Below the pieces are notes generated by a model that worked only from the letters and a program-made list of their open reading frames with translations, was not told where the DNA came from and made no database searches. The position numbers and the translations under genes are program-made. Below, in pieces: positions 3,292 to 61,669 of a DNA stretch of 64,000 bases (positions within the stretch are counted from its first letter, which is position 1; each line of letters opens with the position of its first letter). The stretch is from sequence record PQ724394.1. One strand, 5' to 3'. The DNA comes from a phage.

Positions 3292-3813
3292 TTAATAACC
3301 TCGGTCTTGACGAGCAAAGTTCTCGGCATTTTTCAGATAATACAGTTTAAAGATTTCTTCAGCAGTCAGACCAAGACCTTGGAACATATTCAGAACAAAG
3401 TGAAGAATATCAATCATCTCGAATTTAATTTCGAGCTGGTCTTCAGGAGACAACTCGTCAATACGACGGTTACGGAATTCACCGTGTTGAGCTTTCCAAG
3501 GCTTCCACACACTAGAGGCAGCTTTTTCGCCATTACTCATACCGCCAAGAGAAGTCAGCAGTTCACGGAATTCATCATCAATATAATCTTTCTGGTTGCG
3601 AAGCCAGTCGACAACTTGACCAGCCGTAGCTAGTTCATCGGGATTGGTGTTGAATTCTGATTTTTCAGTGGCCAGACGAACCTGTAATGATTTCTGCATA
3701 TCAAGCATAACTTGCAGAGGGTCTTTATCTTCGTGAATCAGAGCATTAAAATAAGCTTCTTCAGCTTTATCAACACCAGCAATAAGTTGAGAACATTCAT
3801 TAAAATGAGCCAT
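3292..3813 (-). CDS. 56: dCTP pyrophosphatase (dCTPase, MazG-like)
   Basis: 173 aa, same size and position as T4 gp56, adjacent to primase gene 61. Confidence 0.85.
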   Translation of the reverse strand: MAHFNECSQLIAGVDKAEEAYFNALIHEDKDPLQVMLDMQKSLQVRLATEKSEFNTNPDELATAGQVVDWLRNQKDYIDDEFRELLTSLGGMSNGEKAASSVWKPWKAQHGEFRNRRIDELSPEDQLEIKFEMIDILHFVLNMFQGLGLTAEEIFKLYYLKNAENFARQDRGY

Positions 3814-3904
3814 TATATTTTTCCTTTTTCAATTCATTAATAAGTTAGATAATTATAAACTGCTAGATTAAAGCGAATAAATATTAATTTAACAGGAGGA
3901 TAAC

Positions 3905-4105
3905 ATGGGCAGTATTTTTTACCAAATCTGGAAATTGGCAGAAAAGAAAGACAAGAAAATGATGTTAGGTTTTCTTGCGCTAGACGTATTCCTTTGGAAT
4001 CTTCTAGTAGTCCCTGTAGCCGCTAGCCAAGGGGTAGTTTTACCAGCGGTTACAATGGAACACGTGTTAAGCATAATTGGATTCTTTAGCGGAATCCCTG
4101 CTTAA
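3905..4105 (+). CDS. hypothetical small hydrophobic protein (66 aa), opposite strand
   Basis: Strong AGGAGG RBS 7 nt before ATG at 3905; hydrophobic segment; sits in the 56-61 intergenic gap. Confidence 0.35.
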   Translation: MGSIFYQIWKLAEKKDKKMMLGFLALDVFLWNLLVVPVAASQGVVLPAVTMEHVLSIIGFFSGIPA

Positions 4106-5130
4106 ATCTTGGAATATTTAGAAAGTCTCATTTTTGCCATTAGACCTTGGGCTATATTAGCTTTCATATATGCCAATACATCATTTATATCAGCTTTATC
4201 TTTCATAACCATATCATTTATATCTTTAGAAGGCCATGGAGCCTTGTCCCAGAATAGAACCCTTTCACCGGCATCAACTAGGCGTTGCATACGTTTAATT
4301 GTGTCAGGATGACGGGGTTCATTGTCCATTACCCAGGCACGAGTTTCTTTACATGGAACCATAGCCAAGTCCAACGACCCACCAGTAATTGCTATTGCGT
4401 TAGGTACGAATAATGAATCAATAGGACCTTCCATTACCCACACCAATTGACGTTCGTCAACTGTATCCATTCCATATATTTTTGTAGCTTGGTCATGAGC
4501 TTTTATTGTAATATATTTTTGTGGAGCATCTTTACGCAAGGCTCGACCCTGGAAACTTTCTATTTGTTTATCCTTATTGAAAATAGGAATAACCAAACGA
4601 GGCTCAGGCATTTCTTTAGAATAGGTCCCTGGATTCACTGAGTTAACCAATGCAGGCCATTCTTTAGTAAACCATAACCGATTCCATTTATTTTCAGGAA
4701 TGCACCGCAGAGTTACATACTTAATAATAGGATGGTCTTTCGGCATTCTATCTAATCGTTCACAGAAATTAAGCTTTTCGATTACGGGCATCTTAGCTTT
4801 AATTTTTTCAGATATCTCCACCTTAGGTGCAGCTTGTCTCCCGAACGATTGCTCTTTATGTTTCTCAAGAATATATTCGCGATATAAATCAGGCTCATAT
4901 TCGTATAGGTACTTCTTAATTCCTGCCGAATAATCACAGTTAAAACAGTGTAGCATTACAGAGCCGTCATTGGCCGGATAGGCCCAGAATCGAGCTTTGT
5001 TTTCATCTTTTTGGGAGTCACCACATACACGGCAACGACAATTTAATTTAAAATCACTACCAGTTACTTGTCTGAATTTAGGTTGGTAATTCAAGGCACG
5101 TACAGCAAATTCTCTATCGACATATGACAT
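4102..5130 (-). CDS. 61: DNA primase
   Basis: 342 aa, same length as T4 gp61; N-terminal Cys4 zinc ribbon (CRCRVC...CFNC) followed by a Toprim-like region. Confidence 0.95.
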   Translation of the reverse strand: MSYVDREFAVRALNYQPKFRQVTGSDFKLNCRCRVCGDSQKDENKARFWAYPANDGSVMLHCFNCDYSAGIKKYLYEYEPDLYREYILEKHKEQSFGRQAAPKVEISEKIKAKMPVIEKLNFCERLDRMPKDHPIIKYVTLRCIPENKWNRLWFTKEWPALVNSVNPGTYSKEMPEPRLVIPIFNKDKQIESFQGRALRKDAPQKYITIKAHDQATKIYGMDTVDERQLVWVMEGPIDSLFVPNAIAITGGSLDLAMVPCKETRAWVMDNEPRHPDTIKRMQRLVDAGERVLFWDKAPWPSKDINDMVMKDKADINDVLAYMKANIAQGLMAKMRLSKYSKI

Positions 5131-5346
5131 TATTTTTCCTTGGGCTCTAAATTAATAGAGCCATTATATCATTCGTTTTCGGATTTTTCTTTACGCTTTT
5201 TAGATGGGATTTGTTCAGGCCCTTTGTTGACGACTGCGCCCGAGGTAGTTCCGGAGGCAATATTAGATGGATTTCCACCTGCATCGCCTGCGACCATATC
5301 TTCGTTCATAACTTCTTTAAAAGATTTCATAGGCTCCTGGCCTTAT

Positions 5347-5538
5347 TTATATTACGAAAATAGCTTTATCACCATTTGCATCAGTGACTTCATATGTATC
5401 TTCGTGGTAAAGTGGAATAATCCAAGTTAAGCCATCACCTGCAATAATATGGATAGCTTCTTGGTCTTTTGATACGATTTCATATTCTTCGAATAATTCG
5501 AATACAGAAATCTTAGAGCCCGTACACATTGCAGTCAT
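5347..5538 (-). CDS. hypothetical protein (63 aa), 61.1-like position
   Basis: ORF in conserved position between 61 and 41. Confidence 0.35.
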   Translation of the reverse strand: MTAMCTGSKISVFELFEEYEIVSKDQEAIHIIAGDGLTWIIPLYHEDTYEVTDANGDKAIFVI

Positions 5539-5539
5539 A

Positions 5540-5980
5540 TTAACCTCGGTTCATAAAGGCATTAAAAATCTGGTCGTCGATTGAATAAACAGGAGCTTCC
5601 AGAATTTTCAACAGACTGTTTTTGATATACTTGCTAGGGATATCCATATTAACAGCATCGTTCAATTCATTGTCCGGGAGGATGTCTTTAAATTCAAACC
5701 CTTCAAACTCAACCTTGTCAGGAATACCATCAGCGAAAAAATAGACCAATTGGTGCATTGCATTACATGAAAATAATTTAGACCTCACCTCAATAAGTTC
5801 TTGCCAATGGTTTAATTCTCTGTTAAGAAGTTTATGGGCCATTGTAATTCTATCATCACTATCAACAAGAAAATAACCTAGGTACTGGTGGTCGTCGCTC
5901 CAAAACATCCTGTATGCTTGTGCATTTGGATTTTTACAACGAAGCTTTTTGATAACTAAATTTCTGTTAATCTTATTCAC
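5540..5980 (-). CDS. hypothetical protein (146 aa), 61.2-like position
   Basis: ORF in conserved position between 61 and 41. Confidence 0.45.
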   Translation of the reverse strand: MNKINRNLVIKKLRCKNPNAQAYRMFWSDDHQYLGYFLVDSDDRITMAHKLLNRELNHWQELIEVRSKLFSCNAMHQLVYFFADGIPDKVEFEGFEFKDILPDNELNDAVNMDIPSKYIKNSLLKILEAPVYSIDDQIFNAFMNRG

Positions 5981-47095: not shown

Positions 47096-47103
47096 TATTT
47101 ATA
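47096..47103 (-). promoter_or_regulatory. late promoter (TATAAATA) for lysozyme gene e
   Basis: Exact TATAAATA immediately upstream of a CCTCC...GGAGG hairpin that contains the e Shine-Dalgarno. Confidence 0.65.
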
Positions 47104-54476: not shown

Positions 54477-54740
54477 TTATTTCATATTATTGAAATAATC
54501 TTCCGCATCAAAATCGTTATCGTGATAAACTTTGGTAGACAATTTGACGTAACCTTCGGCAGCAAACATATTAACCACAACCTTTACGGTATACCATTGT
54601 CCATCATCATTACCCATTACTGCGTAAGTTTCAAATATGGGATGGTCATCACCTATAACCTTAATATCGTTAACAGTAGCACCAAATTCTTCAGGAACGC
54701 ATTTCATAAAGAAATTAAACAATTCACCGTAATTATCCAT
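54477..54740 (-). CDS. hypothetical protein (87 aa)
   Basis: ATG at 54740; early promoter cassette upstream. Confidence 0.45.
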   Translation of the reverse strand: MDNYGELFNFFMKCVPEEFGATVNDIKVIGDDHPIFETYAVMGNDDGQWYTVKVVVNMFAAEGYVKLSTKVYHDNDFDAEDYFNNMK

Positions 54741-54774
54741 TTTACTCCCCTTCACACTGTTGTTTTGATAGGTC

Positions 54775-54804
54775 TATAGTATCACGTTTAAAGGAGGTGT
54801 AAAC
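54775..54804 (-). promoter_or_regulatory. early promoter cassette
   Basis: Conserved motif copy upstream of 54477-54740. Confidence 0.6.
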
Positions 54805-54835
54805 AACTTTGTGAAATTATTTTTAGATTAAACCC

Positions 54836-54858
54836 CCTAAAAGGAGACCGAAGTCTCC
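54836..54858 (-). terminator. intrinsic terminator (short T-run)
   Basis: GGAGAC-TTCG-GTCTCC hairpin, T4 run. Confidence 0.5.
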
Positions 54859-54863
54859 TTTCA

Positions 54864-55481
54864 CTATTTACGAGTCTTTTCGAACTGAGCTGCGTCTCCG
54901 GCCAGACGACGTGCTTGACGAAGTTTGTTATCAATTTCTTCGCGCATAGGCTGGGTGTACTTAAGGCCTTCAACTGTCAGGTAAAGACGATAGAGGTCCG
55001 GCGTGTCCAGGTTGTTAATGTGTTGGCCGTTACGAAGGGCATTGAATTCACGAACAACCTGTTTTGTTTCAGATTCGATTTCTGAAATCAAAGAAGCTAG
55101 CTGGTTATATTTTTTAACAATAGTAGTGGTGTCAAACTTGATTTTAGATTTAGGAGCTTCTTTTACAGGCTCTGCTTTAGGCGCCGGTTTCGGTGCTGCA
55201 ACTTTGGTTGGGGCTGCTGGTTTAGCAACAGGAGCTTTAGCTGGTTTAGCAGGCTTAGTAGCGCCACCGGCTACGATATCTTTAAAAGCTTTGGAAGCTT
55301 TGTAATATTCTTTCTGGCTACTAGTATCAAAACCATACATATCATAAACGTTTTTAAAGAACTCAGTAGTGGTTTTAGTCCCGGAAATTTTATCATAAGC
55401 CGCTTGCCACATATCTTTAGTCATGCGCAAGCCGGCTTCACTCAGAACGCTTTCGTTCAAAAATTCATTGTAAGTTTTCAT
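54864..55481 (-). CDS. internal-protein-like head protein (Ala/Pro/Lys-rich) with capsid targeting leader
   Basis: N-terminus MKTYNEFLNE|S; low-complexity KPAKPAKAPVAKPAAP segment; TATAAATA late promoter upstream; terminator downstream. Confidence 0.55.
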   Translation of the reverse strand: MKTYNEFLNESVLSEAGLRMTKDMWQAAYDKISGTKTTTEFFKNVYDMYGFDTSSQKEYYKASKAFKDIVAGGATKPAKPAKAPVAKPAAPTKVAAPKPAPKAEPVKEAPKSKIKFDTTTIVKKYNQLASLISEIESETKQVVREFNALRNGQHINNLDTPDLYRLYLTVEGLKYTQPMREEIDNKLRQARRLAGDAAQFEKTRK

Positions 55482-55509
55482 TATTGTTTCCTGTGTTAAT
55501 TAACTTATC

Positions 55510-55517
55510 TATTTATA
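55510..55517 (-). promoter_or_regulatory. late promoter (TATAAATA) for internal-protein-like gene
   Basis: TATAAATA about 30 nt upstream of ATG at 55481; directly follows a terminator hairpin. Confidence 0.55.
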
Positions 55518-55518
55518 C

Positions 55519-55546
55519 AAAAAAGGCCCAACCTTTTGGAAGGGCC
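55519..55546 (-). terminator. intrinsic terminator (copy 1 of duplicated cassette)
   Basis: GGCCCTTCC-AAAA-GGTTGGGCC hairpin plus T6 run. Confidence 0.65.
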
Positions 55547-55551
55547 GTAAA

Positions 55552-56106
55552 TCAGTTCTTGTAGAACCGGAACGGGTTCACGTGGAAGGCTAACATAGCT
55601 TTAGGGATTTTACGAGACAAAAGGCTCTTAAGCTTCCATCCACAGTACACGCGAAGGTAAAATGTGATTCCGCCGACCTTAAGATAAGGAACTGAAGCAA
55701 ATACACCCCAGGCATCATCATTCCACATCCATAACCAACCATGGTGGGCTTTATCAGGAGAACCTGATTCTACGTCAGGATTGCCGCGATAATGGAATTC
55801 TGAACTACAATCACGTCCTAGTTTATGATAAGCAAAGTTATAAGCTTTATTTCGCCATAGCCAAGCTACTCTCTGGAGATAAACACCACCAGGCATTTTC
55901 CTGATTTTAGCCCAACGTTTAATATGACCTTTATCGCCGTCAATTGGATTATCGTATGTCATCATCCAATCAAAACCGTATGGCAATTTACCAGTCTTTT
56001 TATTGTAGAAAGGAACCACAAAAGGCGCAAGGATAACAGCCAGAACCATAGAGATAAAATCTAGTGGGACCAACAGAATCCAACTCAAATATTTTAAAAG
56101 TTTCAT
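55552..56106 (-). CDS. hypothetical membrane-anchored protein (184 aa)
   Basis: N-terminal TM helix; flanked by duplicated terminator/late-promoter cassette. Confidence 0.5.
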   Translation of the reverse strand: MKLLKYLSWILLVPLDFISMVLAVILAPFVVPFYNKKTGKLPYGFDWMMTYDNPIDGDKGHIKRWAKIRKMPGGVYLQRVAWLWRNKAYNFAYHKLGRDCSSEFHYRGNPDVESGSPDKAHHGWLWMWNDDAWGVFASVPYLKVGGITFYLRVYCGWKLKSLLSRKIPKAMLAFHVNPFRFYKN

Positions 56107-56132
56107 ATTATTTCCTAAGTTAGTTTACTGTA

Positions 56133-56140
56133 TATTTATA
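56133..56140 (-). promoter_or_regulatory. late promoter (TATAAATA)
   Basis: TATAAATA about 28 nt upstream of ATG at 56106; part of duplicated cassette. Confidence 0.55.
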
Positions 56141-56141
56141 C

Positions 56142-56169
56142 AAAAAAGGCCCAACCTTTCGGAAGGGCC
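56142..56169 (-). terminator. intrinsic terminator (copy 2 of duplicated cassette)
   Basis: GGCCCTTCC-GAAA-GGTTGGGCC hairpin plus T6 run. Confidence 0.65.
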
Positions 56170-56189
56170 TTTAACCTAGGGTAACCTTG

Positions 56190-56480
56190 TCGGGGTTCCA
56201 CCTGCTAGGCAAGTGTTTGTACGAAACGCCGGGATTCGAACCCGGTTATTAAGCAGTTGACGCTACTCAATATTTTTTTAAAAGGCCATATCTCGACCAT
56301 ATCCGAACGTTCCGTCAAAAACGCTACTCGGCTTACGGCAAAGATATTTCCTCGAATCGATAATTCGATGCGCCGTTTCAGCTGTGATAGTAAAGAACCA
56401 GAACACAGTAAAACTGTGGGAGGAACTATACTCCAGGGAACTTCAGTCCGACGACTTACCGGTAGCGACCCGGTTTCTTG
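56190..56480 (-). ncRNA. possible small stable RNA(s) with tRNA-like T-arm, adjacent to tRNA cluster
   Basis: CCGGG-TTCGAAT-CCCGG T-arm-like element at 56229-56245 without foldable anticodon or D arms; several palindromes; analogous position to T4 stable RNAs C and D. Confidence 0.3.
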
Positions 56481-56482
56481 TT

Positions 56483-56558
56483 TGGTCGAGACAGTAGGGA
56501 TCGAACCTACGACCCAGGACTTAGAAGGTCCTTGCTCTTCCTTCTGAGCTATGCCTCG
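56483..56558 (-). tRNA. tRNA-Arg (anticodon TCT)
   Basis: Hand-folded cloverleaf: 7-bp acceptor stem, D arm GCTC/GAGC, anticodon loop CTTCTAA, T arm GTAGG-TTCGATC-CCTAC, CCA encoded. Confidence 0.8.
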
Positions 56559-56562
56559 TATT

Positions 56563-56637
56563 TGGCGGACATGCATGGATTCGAACCATGGACCAATTGA
56601 TTAACAGTCAACTGCTCTACCGCTGAGCTACACATCC
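56563..56637 (-). tRNA. tRNA-Asn (anticodon GTT)
   Basis: Hand-folded cloverleaf: acceptor stem with two G-U pairs, D arm GCTC/GAGC, anticodon loop CTGTTAA, T arm CATGG-TTCGAAT-CCATG, CCA encoded. Confidence 0.75.
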
Positions 56638-56641
56638 GAAT

Positions 56642-56715
56642 TGGTGGCCCTGGGTGGAATCGAACCACCATCCAGCGATTATGAGTCGCTCGCTTGACCG
56701 TCCAGCTACAGGGCC
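56642..56715 (-). tRNA. tRNA-Met or Ile-lysidine (anticodon CAT)
   Basis: Hand-folded cloverleaf: perfect 7-bp acceptor stem, anticodon loop CTCATAA, T arm GGTGG-TTCGATT-CCACC, CCA encoded. Confidence 0.75.
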
Positions 56716-56783
56716 TTAATTCTATTATGAAAGGCTCTTTGAGGGAAGAACCTTTGGTAATAGAGGGTATTAATGATAGAGTA

Positions 56784-56810
56784 ATAATATCACATAATTC
56801 TTAAAGCATA
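56784..56810 (-). promoter_or_regulatory. MotA-type promoter candidate upstream of tRNA cluster
   Basis: TATGCTTTA box, 12-nt spacer, TATTAT; oriented toward the tRNA genes. Confidence 0.35.
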
Positions 56811-57085
56811 TTAATGTAATCAAGTTTAATAGAAGCAATCTTCAAAGGATTTTTAAAGATGTCGTATTCGACCAACCCATTTTCATTTGCCGTATAAAAA
56901 GTAAAGTTAACAGAATTATAGCGTTGGCTGTTAACTTTGAGTTTAACATCGCTTGAACTACGGCCAATATTAACCTGTTGAACATCAAGCACAGCATCTT
57001 TGCCGTAATTTCGAATCAACAACTCAGCTGCAACCTGATCGGATTTATAGCCATTCTCTGGATTAGTAACCTTAACGTATAACAT
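56801..57085 (-). CDS. hypothetical protein (94 aa)
   Basis: ORF. Confidence 0.4.
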   Translation of the reverse strand: MLYVKVTNPENGYKSDQVAAELLIRNYGKDAVLDVQQVNIGRSSSDVKLKVNSQRYNSVNFTFYTANENGLVEYDIFKNPLKIASIKLDYINML

Positions 57086-57490
57086 TTAACCCTCGTCTAC
57101 AATAGTGTGGGTATTGGCATTAACAATCTGCCACCAGCCAAAACGATTAGAACCGTAAAGAGGCTTATTCTCGTTTTCTTTAATGATATCGCGCAGTTCA
57201 TCTTCAGAGAAGGCTTTAGCGATTAAATCAGTATACCCACCGCGTGGATAATAATTATCACCCGCAAACAAAAGGAAATTTACCTTTCCGGAAGGAACAT
57301 ATGCTTCCTTAGGATACTTGTTTCCTGCATGGTCTACCACTTCAATATAACGGTAAGGAATATCAGTACTTTCAACCCATTGCCATGCTGCAGCAGGGGA
57401 TTCAAAAGCATCTACACCTAAACGATTATCTTCATCTTTAGACGGATTATTTTCGTAATCCGCATATACATAATATTCAATGTTCATCAT
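57086..57490 (-). CDS. hypothetical protein (134 aa)
   Basis: ORF. Confidence 0.45.
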   Translation of the reverse strand: MMNIEYYVYADYENNPSKDEDNRLGVDAFESPAAAWQWVESTDIPYRYIEVVDHAGNKYPKEAYVPSGKVNFLLFAGDNYYPRGGYTDLIAKAFSEDELRDIIKENENKPLYGSNRFGWWQIVNANTHTIVDEG

Positions 57491-57672
57491 TCACCTTTAG
57501 AGATTTTATCCATAACGAAAGAGATTGAACCAATTAAGAATGCCACTACTAAAGAGATTGTATTCTCGGAAGTTGTAAGCAAATCCAACATGAATCCTGC
57601 AAACATACTAAAGCCAAAAGCAGTAACGGCGGCCAGTGCAGTAACATTTCTAATTAATTCACAACGTTTCAT
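57487..57672 (-). CDS. hypothetical membrane protein (61 aa)
   Basis: ATG at 57672; early promoter cassette upstream. Confidence 0.4.
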   Translation of the reverse strand: MKRCELIRNVTALAAVTAFGFSMFAGFMLDLLTTSENTISLVVAFLIGSISFVMDKISKGE

Positions 57673-57707
57673 TTTATTCTCCAATCACTCATTTGTTTTG
57701 ATAGGTC

Positions 57708-57749: not shown

Positions 57750-58004
57750 TTATTTTAGGTCTTCTAGACGTTTCTTCATCTTAGAGCCATTCTTAGCAAT
57801 TTCGCCAGCGTCTGAACATAGAGCCAAAAGGGCTTTAACTTTAGTCTGGTCACCTTTAAAGGAACTCGGGTCAACAGAATCAGCAAGTTCTTTAATACGC
57901 GCGAACAAACGTTCGGCTTCAGCTAAAGCAGTACCAAGTTTTACTTCCATACCGTGTGAGGATTCGGTTAGAGGTTGCGCAGAAAATTCTTGATAAGTTT
58001 TCAT
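57750..58004 (-). CDS. internal-protein-like protein with capsid targeting leader
   Basis: N-terminus MKTYQEFSAQPLTE|S. Confidence 0.5.
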   Translation of the reverse strand: MKTYQEFSAQPLTESSHGMEVKLGTALAEAERLFARIKELADSVDPSSFKGDQTKVKALLALCSDAGEIAKNGSKMKKRLEDLK

Positions 58005-58022: not shown

Positions 58023-58924
<902 letters not shown>

Positions 58925-61646: not shown

Positions 61647-61654
61647 TATAAATA
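61647..61654 (+). promoter_or_regulatory. late promoter (TATAAATA) for gene 53
   Basis: TATAAATA 28 nt upstream of the gene 53 ATG. Confidence 0.65.
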
Positions 61655-61661
61655 TTAATAT

Positions 61662-61669
61662 TATTTATA
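61662..61669 (-). promoter_or_regulatory. late promoter (TATAAATA) for gene 4, divergent from the gene 53 promoter
   Basis: Reverse-complement TATAAATA 27 nt upstream of gene 4 ATG. Confidence 0.6.

Follow-up and report, generated by a model that had tools for sequence, protein, structure and literature searches.

The putative late gene for a DUF7338 membrane protein in a 64,000-nt stretch of phage DNA (record PQ724394.1; the whole stretch is called the window here) lies between two direct repeats of about 40 bp, each of which combines a predicted terminator hairpin with a predicted T4-type late promoter. We put a probability of roughly 75% on the reading that these repeats are terminator plus late-promoter cassettes that also serve as exchange seams for the loss, gain and movement of the DUF7338 unit. 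The repeats themselves, their anatomy, the one- and two-cassette alleles at two independent loci and the homology of the module across genera are direct observations, and they are set out below before the interpretation that we place on them.

Setting of the repeats

The window belongs to a Dhakavirus (JS98-like, Tevenvirinae). The region is 92-96% identical to Dhakavirus genomes, of which MN04, NC-G, Esco_phi_B-01, UP19 and JS98 are the closest. All genes of the region are on the minus strand, and transcription would run through dNMP kinase, 57A, 57B, two Ip genes, trna.4, trna.3 and trna.2, the tRNAs for Met, Asn and Arg, a stable-RNA-like region and the cassette module to e.8 and e.6. The features around the repeats, in that order and all on the minus strand, are:

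56483..56715, minus strand: tRNA-Arg(tct), tRNA-Asn(gtt) and tRNA-Met(cat), part of the upstream transcription unit (ARAGORN, Rfam)
56175..56482, minus strand: stable-RNA-like region between tRNA-Arg and copy B, recognized by alignment, with copy B as its predicted 3' terminator
56133..56174, minus strand: copy B, the upstream cassette (hairpin 56169-56148 with loop GAAA; T6 56147-56142; G 56141; TATAAATA 56140-56133)
55552..56106, minus strand: DUF7338 membrane-protein gene (JS98 orf136), 184 aa (Pfam DUF7338, E = 2.9e-63)
55510..55551, minus strand: copy A, the downstream cassette (hairpin 55546-55525 with loop AAAA; T6 55524-55519; G 55518; TATAAATA 55517-55510)
54864..55481, minus strand: internal-protein-like gene (JS98 orf135), 205 aa (phrog_2280), product starting MKTYNEFLNE
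54843..54858, minus strand: terminator-like hairpin GGAGAC-TTCG-GTCTCC with a T-run, unrelated to the cassette, closing the orf135 unit
54803-54776, minus strand: early-type promoter for e.8, after the preceding hairpin

A sequence-only reading had described two near-identical segments of about 40 nt at 55510-55546 and 56133-56169, bracketing a gene at 55552-56106 and preceding an internal-protein-like gene. Both coordinates and description proved accurate, with the similarity running 5 nt further (to 55551 and 56174); the bracketed frame is a real gene by its Pfam match, and the gene behind the downstream copy is indeed internal-protein-like by its family assignment and N-terminus. The DUF7338 protein has an N-terminal transmembrane helix followed by an alpha/beta domain, and homologues occur in Dhaka-, Gapriver-, Mosig-, Karam-, Gelderland-, Pseudoteven- and Slopekviruses as well as in FelixO1-like phages. 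It is the cargo of a 623-bp module made up of the late promoter, a leader, the DUF7338 gene and the hairpin.

The orf135 product is 31-35% identical to QL01_137 and e112_137, members of an Ip-like family found at the same position in other phages, and it has in common with the products of the Ip genes at 57750-58004 and 58023-58232 an MK(T/S)Y.EF N-terminus, which in T4 internal proteins is the signal for capsid targeting and for the prohead protease. Upstream, ARAGORN places a 97-nt tRNA-like call at 56219-56315, within the stable-RNA-like region, and an Rfam search of 55400-56900 returned the three tRNAs only, with nothing for the cassette or the stable-RNA region. The other terminators of the region are unrelated to the cassette in sequence.

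Anatomy of the cassette

A repeat search of the window aligns minus-strand positions 55551-55510 with 56174-56133 as 42-nt direct repeats that are 93% identical and spaced 623 bp from start to start. When 55510-55546 and 56133-56169 are compared by blastn-short, 36 of the 37 positions agree, and the sole mismatch of this core falls in the hairpin loop, which on the gene strand is AAAA in copy A and GAAA in copy B. Each copy reads, on the minus strand, GGCCCTTCC-(A/G)AAA-GGTTGGGCC, then six T residues, a single G and TATAAATA. Two matches to the 22-nt hairpin pattern are present in the window, even at up to three mismatches, where 0.00 are expected from 100 shuffles, and no third or partial copy of the cassette was found in the 64 kb, either at up to three mismatches or by blastn-short with a word size of 7. 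JS98-type genomes carry a third copy of the hairpin between uvsW.1 and uvsY.-2, outside the window, so that each genome has two full cassettes and three hairpin copies.

The predicted fold consists of five G-C pairs, a 2x2 U.U/U.U internal loop, two C-G pairs and the tetraloop, with energies of -14.5 and -19.8 kcal/mol for the two hairpins (z-scores of -2.4 and -3.2 against shuffles). The copy B hairpin and its flank are conserved in Dhaka-, Gapriver-, Mosig- and Tequatrovirus, and variation of the hairpin between genera includes one compensatory change from G-C to C-G and changes among G-C, A-T and G.T at the base of the stem.

A G+C-rich stem-loop directly before U6 has the form of an intrinsic terminator. 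A consensus terminator scan listed neither cassette hairpin, which, since it missed them because the stem is interrupted, is not evidence against their being terminators; the orthologue of copy B in Tequatrovirus e11/2 is annotated 'terminator', itself a prediction. From its position, copy B would end the tRNA/stable-RNA unit and start the DUF7338 gene, and copy A, 5 nt past the stop codon of that gene, would end it and start the internal-protein-like gene.

The promoter half of each cassette is an exact TATAAATA octamer on the gene strand, matching the T4 late promoter consensus at -13..-6 (PMC1524935). The start codon follows the cassette by 28 nt for copy A (ATG at 55481) and 26 nt for copy B (ATG at 56106), and the A+T-rich leader between TATAAATA and ATG contains, in each case, an AGGAAA Shine-Dalgarno sequence. 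Seven of the eight TATAAATA octamers in the window are in non-coding DNA 13-31 nt ahead of an ORF start, and the same spacing to the ATG recurs ahead of the lysozyme-like gene at 47103 and other genes. Late initiation at TATAAATA is thus suggested by the exact consensus, the spacing and this placement before ORF starts. It should be noted that the number of octamers is not above chance (8 observed against 6.8 expected), which leaves position and conservation as the basis of the promoter call. No -35/-10 pair was called within the repeat, save for a weak 9/12 match at chance level overlapping copy B. The copy A promoter probably serves orf135, and motif, position and conservation together point to independent late expression of both genes, as had been proposed.

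Alleles with and without the gene in Dhakavirus

Seven Dhakaviruses (IME08, dhaeg, dhabil, CLB_P2, SHP1, C6 and ESCO10) lack the gene and have a single cassette, which has the flank of copy A (the orf135 leader) on one side and that of copy B (towards the stable RNA and tRNAs) on the other. In dhaeg and IME08, for example, the promoter side of the cassette leads into the orf135 leader, and its hairpin side borders on TTTAACCTAGGG..., the flank that copy B has towards the stable RNA. Of a 161-nt probe for this empty junction, the full length is matched in IME08, SHP1, dhaeg, dhabil and CLB_P2, 95% in C6 and 90% in ESCO10; identity over the 161-nt query is 100% in five of the seven phages, 98.7% in C6 and 97.2% in ESCO10. 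Because the empty junctions are nearly identical in all seven, they possibly go back to one event and not to recurrent exchange.

The corresponding probe for the occupied junction, made up of the 5' end of orf135, the cassette and the 3' end of orf136, is matched in full in nine genomes that have the gene and both cassettes (JS98, MN04, IME281, EcWhh-1, UP19, B-01, AnYang, KIT01 and NC-G). The alignment with related phages that the sequence-only reading had proposed thus divides them into seven with one cassette and no gene and nine with two cassettes and the gene, and the suggestion that the gene was inserted or exchanged by recombination between cassettes gains support from these alleles and from those of Mosigvirus described below. 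In AnYang the same layout persists with repeats that differ by three substitutions and 2 nt in length, which indicates that the repeats are not obligatorily unstable.

Other arrangements depart from these two. Phage vB_EcoM_005 also matches the empty-junction probe and has another gene order (hairpin-promoter, a 474-nt Ip-like gene, orf136, hairpin). JS10 has hairpin-promoter-orf136-hairpin, with no TATAAATA after the second hairpin and no orf135, and in QL01 the promoter and orf136 are separated by an additional Ip-like gene. In both of these phages the hairpin and T-run are still attached to the 3' end of orf136 and the downstream TATAAATA and its gene are absent, which sets the breakpoint between the T-run and TATAAATA. 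In PSD2002 all that is left of orf136 is its first 17 nt joined to the final ~55 nt, and the 3' hairpin has been retained; such an internal deletion implies that some changes at the locus come about without use of the cassettes. Across all arrangements the hairpin consistently forms the 3' end of the orf136 unit. Judged from these comparisons, the site downstream of the tRNA/stable-RNA terminator can be described as a small hyperplastic locus.

The tRNA locus in other genera

The DUF7338 gene lies directly downstream of the tRNA cluster in four genera. In the Gaprivervirus phages VR20 and UPEC01 the hairpin is followed by TATAAAT and orf136, and the hairpin after the gene is another one; VR25, of the same genus, is without the gene, and its junction is a 13-nt GGGCTTTTTTATA common to the tails of these two different terminators. 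This indel, like the PSD2002 deletion, did not use the cassette, and only 13 nt of homology were involved. Karamvirus PG7 and Gelderlandvirus UoN_LG358_1 again have the gene after the tRNA cluster, with other hairpins. The breakpoints of JS10/QL01 and of Gaprivervirus fall in the 3' halves of terminators.

The orthologous hairpin of Tequatrovirus e11/2, GCCCCGACC-GAAA-GGTTGGGGC, has a stem without mismatches and is followed by TATAAATA; a second copy of the hairpin, with an AAAA loop, comes after the next gene, which is Ip-like, and the layout recurs in IMG/VR contigs of this type. Both AnYang and e11/2 have a homing endonuclease gene in the tRNA region.

Local sequence similarity among relatives is a fine-scale mosaic at this region and does not distinguish loss from gain. 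For the gene-less Dhakaviruses (the IME08/dhaeg allele), loss nevertheless seems more likely than a site that was never occupied, because the position after the tRNAs is conserved in Gapriver-, Karam- and Gelderlandvirus. The occurrence of the gene after the tRNA cluster in other genera, together with the AnYang layout, suggests that the arrangement is old. The sequence-only reading had taken the same layout with diverged repeats in related genomes as a mark of ancient conservation rather than recent exchange; AnYang-type genomes and the post-tRNA position in four genera bear this out in part, as regards the age of the arrangement.

A second locus in Mosigvirus

In the Mosigviruses NHEP29, LF82-x, PTE-Eco05 and FL18, a DUF7338 gene (75% aa identity) follows rI and adjoins tk. 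It lies between two copies of AGCCCCTTCCGAAAGGTTGGGGCT, the upstream one of which is followed by TTTTTGTATAAATAT. Positions 1-1467 and 2063-2571 of NHEP29 align to 3665-5131 and 5104-5612 of Av-05, and the 28-nt overlap of the two alignments in Av-05 is the single hairpin of that phage. The period of the duplication at rI is 623 bp, equal to that of the window module. The locus is occupied in 23 records, and one hairpin is found in Av-05, in RB69 and in every record sampled below those 23.

Alignment of the window module with the rI module shows the two to be homologous throughout, from one hairpin by way of TTTTTGTATAAATAT and the leader to the other hairpin, between flanks that are unrelated. 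LF82-1 has the same hairpin, T-run and GTATAAATAT at the tRNA locus and at the rI locus, 16 kb apart. The simplest reading is that a module of the window type was excised or copied between its cassettes and entered the rI terminator through the shared hairpin, and at this terminator in NHEP29/LF82-type Mosigviruses a gain is the most likely direction.

The hairpin in sequence databases

In IMG/VR, CCCTTCCRAAAGGTTGGG is found in 66 stretches from about 24 sequence contexts, in most of which the stem is extended and a T-run is present, and three paired variants of the hairpin core are found in 10, 6 and 15 stretches. A broader scan with CCCNNCCGAAAGGNNGGG returned at least 120 stretches; among the matches listed the TG/TG, CG/CG and CA/TG forms are frequent and the TT/TT form is absent. 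The U.U/U.U core, which we considered as a special element, is not clearly over-represented among related hairpins. The hairpin thus appears to be a common, generic type of terminator, and enrichment of its mismatched form is unproven. Hairpins of the CCCNNCC-GAAA-GGNNGGG type are common in phage contigs, and the cassette hairpin contains both GGGC and GCCC.

Discussion

Our data suggest a model in which the cassettes have two roles. As regulatory elements, the intrinsic terminator, with its G+C-rich hairpin and U-tract, would stop the upstream unit, and the T4-type late promoter TATAAATA, recognized by RNA polymerase modified with gp55, gp33 and gp45, would initiate transcription anew 26-28 nt ahead of the following start codon; the DUF7338 and internal-protein-like genes would then each form an insulated unit of their own, expressed late only and lying downstream of the tRNA/stable-RNA operon. 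Since the cassettes are also direct repeats of about 40 bp, exchange between them is possible, and the recombination/replication machinery of the phage, able to use very short homology, could carry it out. An intramolecular exchange would delete the 623-bp unit (promoter, leader, gene and hairpin) and leave one hybrid cassette, and an excised or donor unit could re-enter wherever the same hairpin exists, perhaps by way of a circular intermediate such as has been described for the PeSLs compared below. We infer the terminator and promoter activities, the recombination mechanism and the direction of each event from sequence comparison. What the comparison documents directly is that the one- and two-copy alleles at both loci are exact to the base and free of scars, an unusually clean natural set, and that breakpoints vary in position, lying inside the repeat, at the border of T-run and promoter, or in a 13-nt terminator tail. 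This variation favours homology-dependent over site-specific exchange.

Other explanations of the locus share some of this evidence. Direct repeats that hold a stable hairpin are classic substrates for replication slippage (copy-choice), in which a fork stalled at one hairpin would re-prime on the other copy and no circle would form, and both the 13-nt Gaprivervirus junction and the T-run breakpoint of JS10/QL01 show that very short homology suffices. Slippage would produce only local loss or duplication, however, and the presence of a homologous module at the Mosigvirus rI terminator, 16 kb off, needs ectopic or inter-genome exchange, which leaves slippage an unlikely account. It is more improbable still that the repeats are purely regulatory, with the polymorphism due to illegitimate deletion or to co-conversion by a homing endonuclease: the empty alleles at two independent loci are base-precise, each having a single hybrid cassette or hairpin without a scar, the identity of the repeats extends over positions that should be unconstrained (the U.U/U.U loop, the G spacer and the length of the T-run), and the other terminators of the region have unrelated sequences. 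Several observations do fit such a view, namely the homing endonuclease genes in the tRNA regions of AnYang and e11/2, the cassette-independent loss of orf136 from PSD2002, the occurrence of the same hairpin as a plain terminator between uvsW.1 and uvsY.-2 and the abundance of CCCNNCC-GAAA-GGNNGGG hairpins in phage contigs.

We find it scarcely credible that the hairpin is a structure-recognized recombination site, attC-like and acted on by a dedicated or co-opted nuclease or recombinase, which would make the 623-bp unit a true mobile cassette. Breakpoints fall at no single fixed position, no recombinase gene adjoins the module at any locus examined, and among related hairpins the U.U/U.U variant shows no clear excess. 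The module does have a hairpin at each end at both of its loci, the mismatched hairpin is the same at each of its three positions in Dhakavirus genomes, and Arbiol et al., who drew attention to T4 deletion endpoints at GGGC/GCCC, speculated that a recombination protein might bind stem-loops (PMC2839356). Homology-dependent exchange between cassettes, as in our model, accommodates breakpoints of varying position and the presence of the module at a second locus.

If the model is right, the locus would offer an example in three parts: a donor-like configuration in the window, precise empty sites in sister phages and a module re-inserted at a terminator in another genus. Short terminator hairpins common to several loci and genera could then provide portable homology for accessory genes that arrive ready to be expressed. 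The cargo in this case is a putative late membrane protein that is widespread in Straboviridae and FelixO1-like phages, and DUF7338 would be a gene that is dispensable yet repeatedly retained. For the engineering of JS98-type therapeutic phages, the intergenic pair may represent both a predictable site of instability and a natural landing pad.

Comparison with known systems

Like the morons of lambdoid phages, the DUF7338 module is a self-contained accessory ORF with its own predicted promoter and terminator, set between resident genes and insulated from them. Unlike morons, it has an ordinary G+C content (0.411 against a mean of 0.393, sd 0.022, for the window, in which 25% of segments are at least as G+C-rich), its promoter is a phage late promoter, which predicts expression in the lytic and not the prophage stage, and its entry would depend on a homologous hairpin and not on non-homologous capture. 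Most novel ORFs of T4-like phages were judged 'not moronic' by Nolan et al. (2006), who found late promoters before conserved late genes only; with a predicted late promoter and terminator of its own, the DUF7338 module appears to be an exception.

Integron cassettes with their attC sites are likewise single-gene units with imperfect boundary hairpins, for which excision as a circle and re-insertion are conceivable here too. The module differs from them in the lack of an integrase, in having its own promoter and in its variable breakpoints. We hold it to be quite improbable that the 623-bp unit behaves as an integrase-free, integron-like mobile cassette, which would be excised as a circle, re-integrate by recognition of structure at shared mismatched hairpins and spread in this way between loci and genera.

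Recombinational shuffling has been proposed for the polymorphic IP loci (Repoila et al., 1994, as cited in PMC2839356 and PMC4122927), and the PeSL-like elements of those loci have T4 early promoters and weak, A+T-rich stem-loops according to the account of Arbiol et al. (PMC2839356). The neighbourhood is the same here, and Ip-like genes with the MKTY.EF motif are shuffled between conserved regulatory flanks; as far as these accounts describe the IP loci, the present elements differ in their G+C-rich stem and late promoter, and in that the gene moved encodes a membrane protein and not an IP. Deletion endpoints at GGGC/GCCC motifs have been recorded in T4 (Mosig, 1998, as cited in PMC2839356).

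The closest parallel is with the PeSLs, which consist of a stem-loop terminator and a sigma70-like early promoter and are repeated in the hyperplastic regions of RB49 and phi1, where the cassettes mark the ends of indels and inverse PCR revealed mini-circles (PMC2839356). Later work extended PeSLs, and PmSLs with middle promoters, to PST/T4 and nt-1/KVP40 (PMC4122927). As in these systems, intergenic DNA contains a stem-loop terminator with a promoter, a Shine-Dalgarno sequence and a start codon immediately behind it, the unit is repeated around small non-essential ORFs, the indels of relatives end in cassettes (in both Dhakavirus and Mosigvirus), and single- and double-cassette alleles occur as predicted by excision and integration of small circles. 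The promoter, by contrast, is the late TATAAATA and is neither sigma70-like nor of the MotA type with a Mot box. Each genome has two full cassettes (three hairpin copies) and not dozens, the neighbourhood is that of tRNA and internal-protein genes, the same cargo is found at two loci in different genera, and circle formation is here a prediction. The term 'late promoter' is absent from both PMC2839356 and PMC4122927, and we found no late-promoter counterpart of PeSLs or PmSLs in the literature searched. The cassette works like a PeSL and is neither a PeSL nor a PmSL in the strict sense. Our results support its description as the late-promoter counterpart of these 'mobile regulatory cassettes', which is not a categorically new kind of element and which widens the idea of such cassettes in T4-type phages from early and middle to late promoters.

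Mosaicism and gene loss

Over positions 54477-57684, comparison of the window with the stretches L001-L008 revealed fine-scale mosaicism, with the nearest relative differing by segment among the Dhakavirus phages dhaeg, IME08, JS98 and JS10.

Nearest relative by segment
orf135/e.8 segment: dhaeg, 95%
orf136 segment: JS98/JS10, 97%
tRNA block: dhaeg/IME08, 99.5%
trna.2-.4 segment: JS98, 98.9%

In PSD2002 (L014, ~2075-2150), all that is left of the DUF7338 membrane-protein gene (JS98 orf136) is its first 17 nt joined to its last ~55 nt, with the 3' hairpin kept. This loss of the gene is an independent event in which the cassette of terminator hairpin and late promoter was not used.

Copies of the hairpin and of the promoter motif

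The terminator hairpin has a third copy, located outside the window in JS98-type genomes (JS98 itself, below, and also L064, L070, L073, L036 and L023):

L039 3702-3719 (JS98): uvsW.1 and uvsY.-2, which are convergent, have the hairpin between them, followed by a T-run; TATAAATA is absent

The IMG/VR comparison covered loci L015-L080 and L083-L190. In it, the 18-nt hairpin core CCCTTCCGAAAGGTTGGG, whose internal loop is U.U/U.U, turned up in some 24 viral contexts unrelated to each other, in nearly all cases with a T-run and a differing stem extension. In the same database, 66 stretches carry this core, as against 10, 6 and 15 for three fully paired variants; the core is absent among the listed matches to the general pattern CCCNNCCGAAAGGNNGGG. 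Within the window, two TATAAATA motifs lie on opposite strands at 61647-61669, separated by 15 nt, and each is followed after 26-27 nt by an ORF start, that of a 200-aa plus-strand ORF and that of a 149-aa minus-strand ORF; the arrangement looks like a divergent late-promoter pair.

The stable-RNA-like region

Two parts of the region between tRNA-Arg and the upstream cassette copy (56175-56482, minus strand) vary among relatives:

~56385-56435: stem-loop flanked by conserved blocks GGACTGAAGTTCCCTG and ATCACAGCTGAAACGGCGCAC (alignment A4, columns ~60-110)
56216-56363, minus strand: segment of ~148 nt with a T-arm-like GGGTTCGAATCCC

Alignment A4 contains three unrelated sequence versions of the stem-loop, one in the window, one shared by MN04, the Tequatrovirus e11/2 and PSD2002, and one shared by JS98 and dhaeg; it is a hypervariable hairpin in a stable RNA that is otherwise conserved. 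The window, MN04, PSD2002 and e11/2 all carry the ~148-nt segment, whereas JS98, dhaeg and IME08 lack precisely this stretch. The segment matches no Rfam family, and ARAGORN calls a 97-nt ‘tRNA-Phe(aaa)’ inside it, at 56219-56315. Its counterpart in T4 is probably part of the rnaC/rnaD stable-RNA region.
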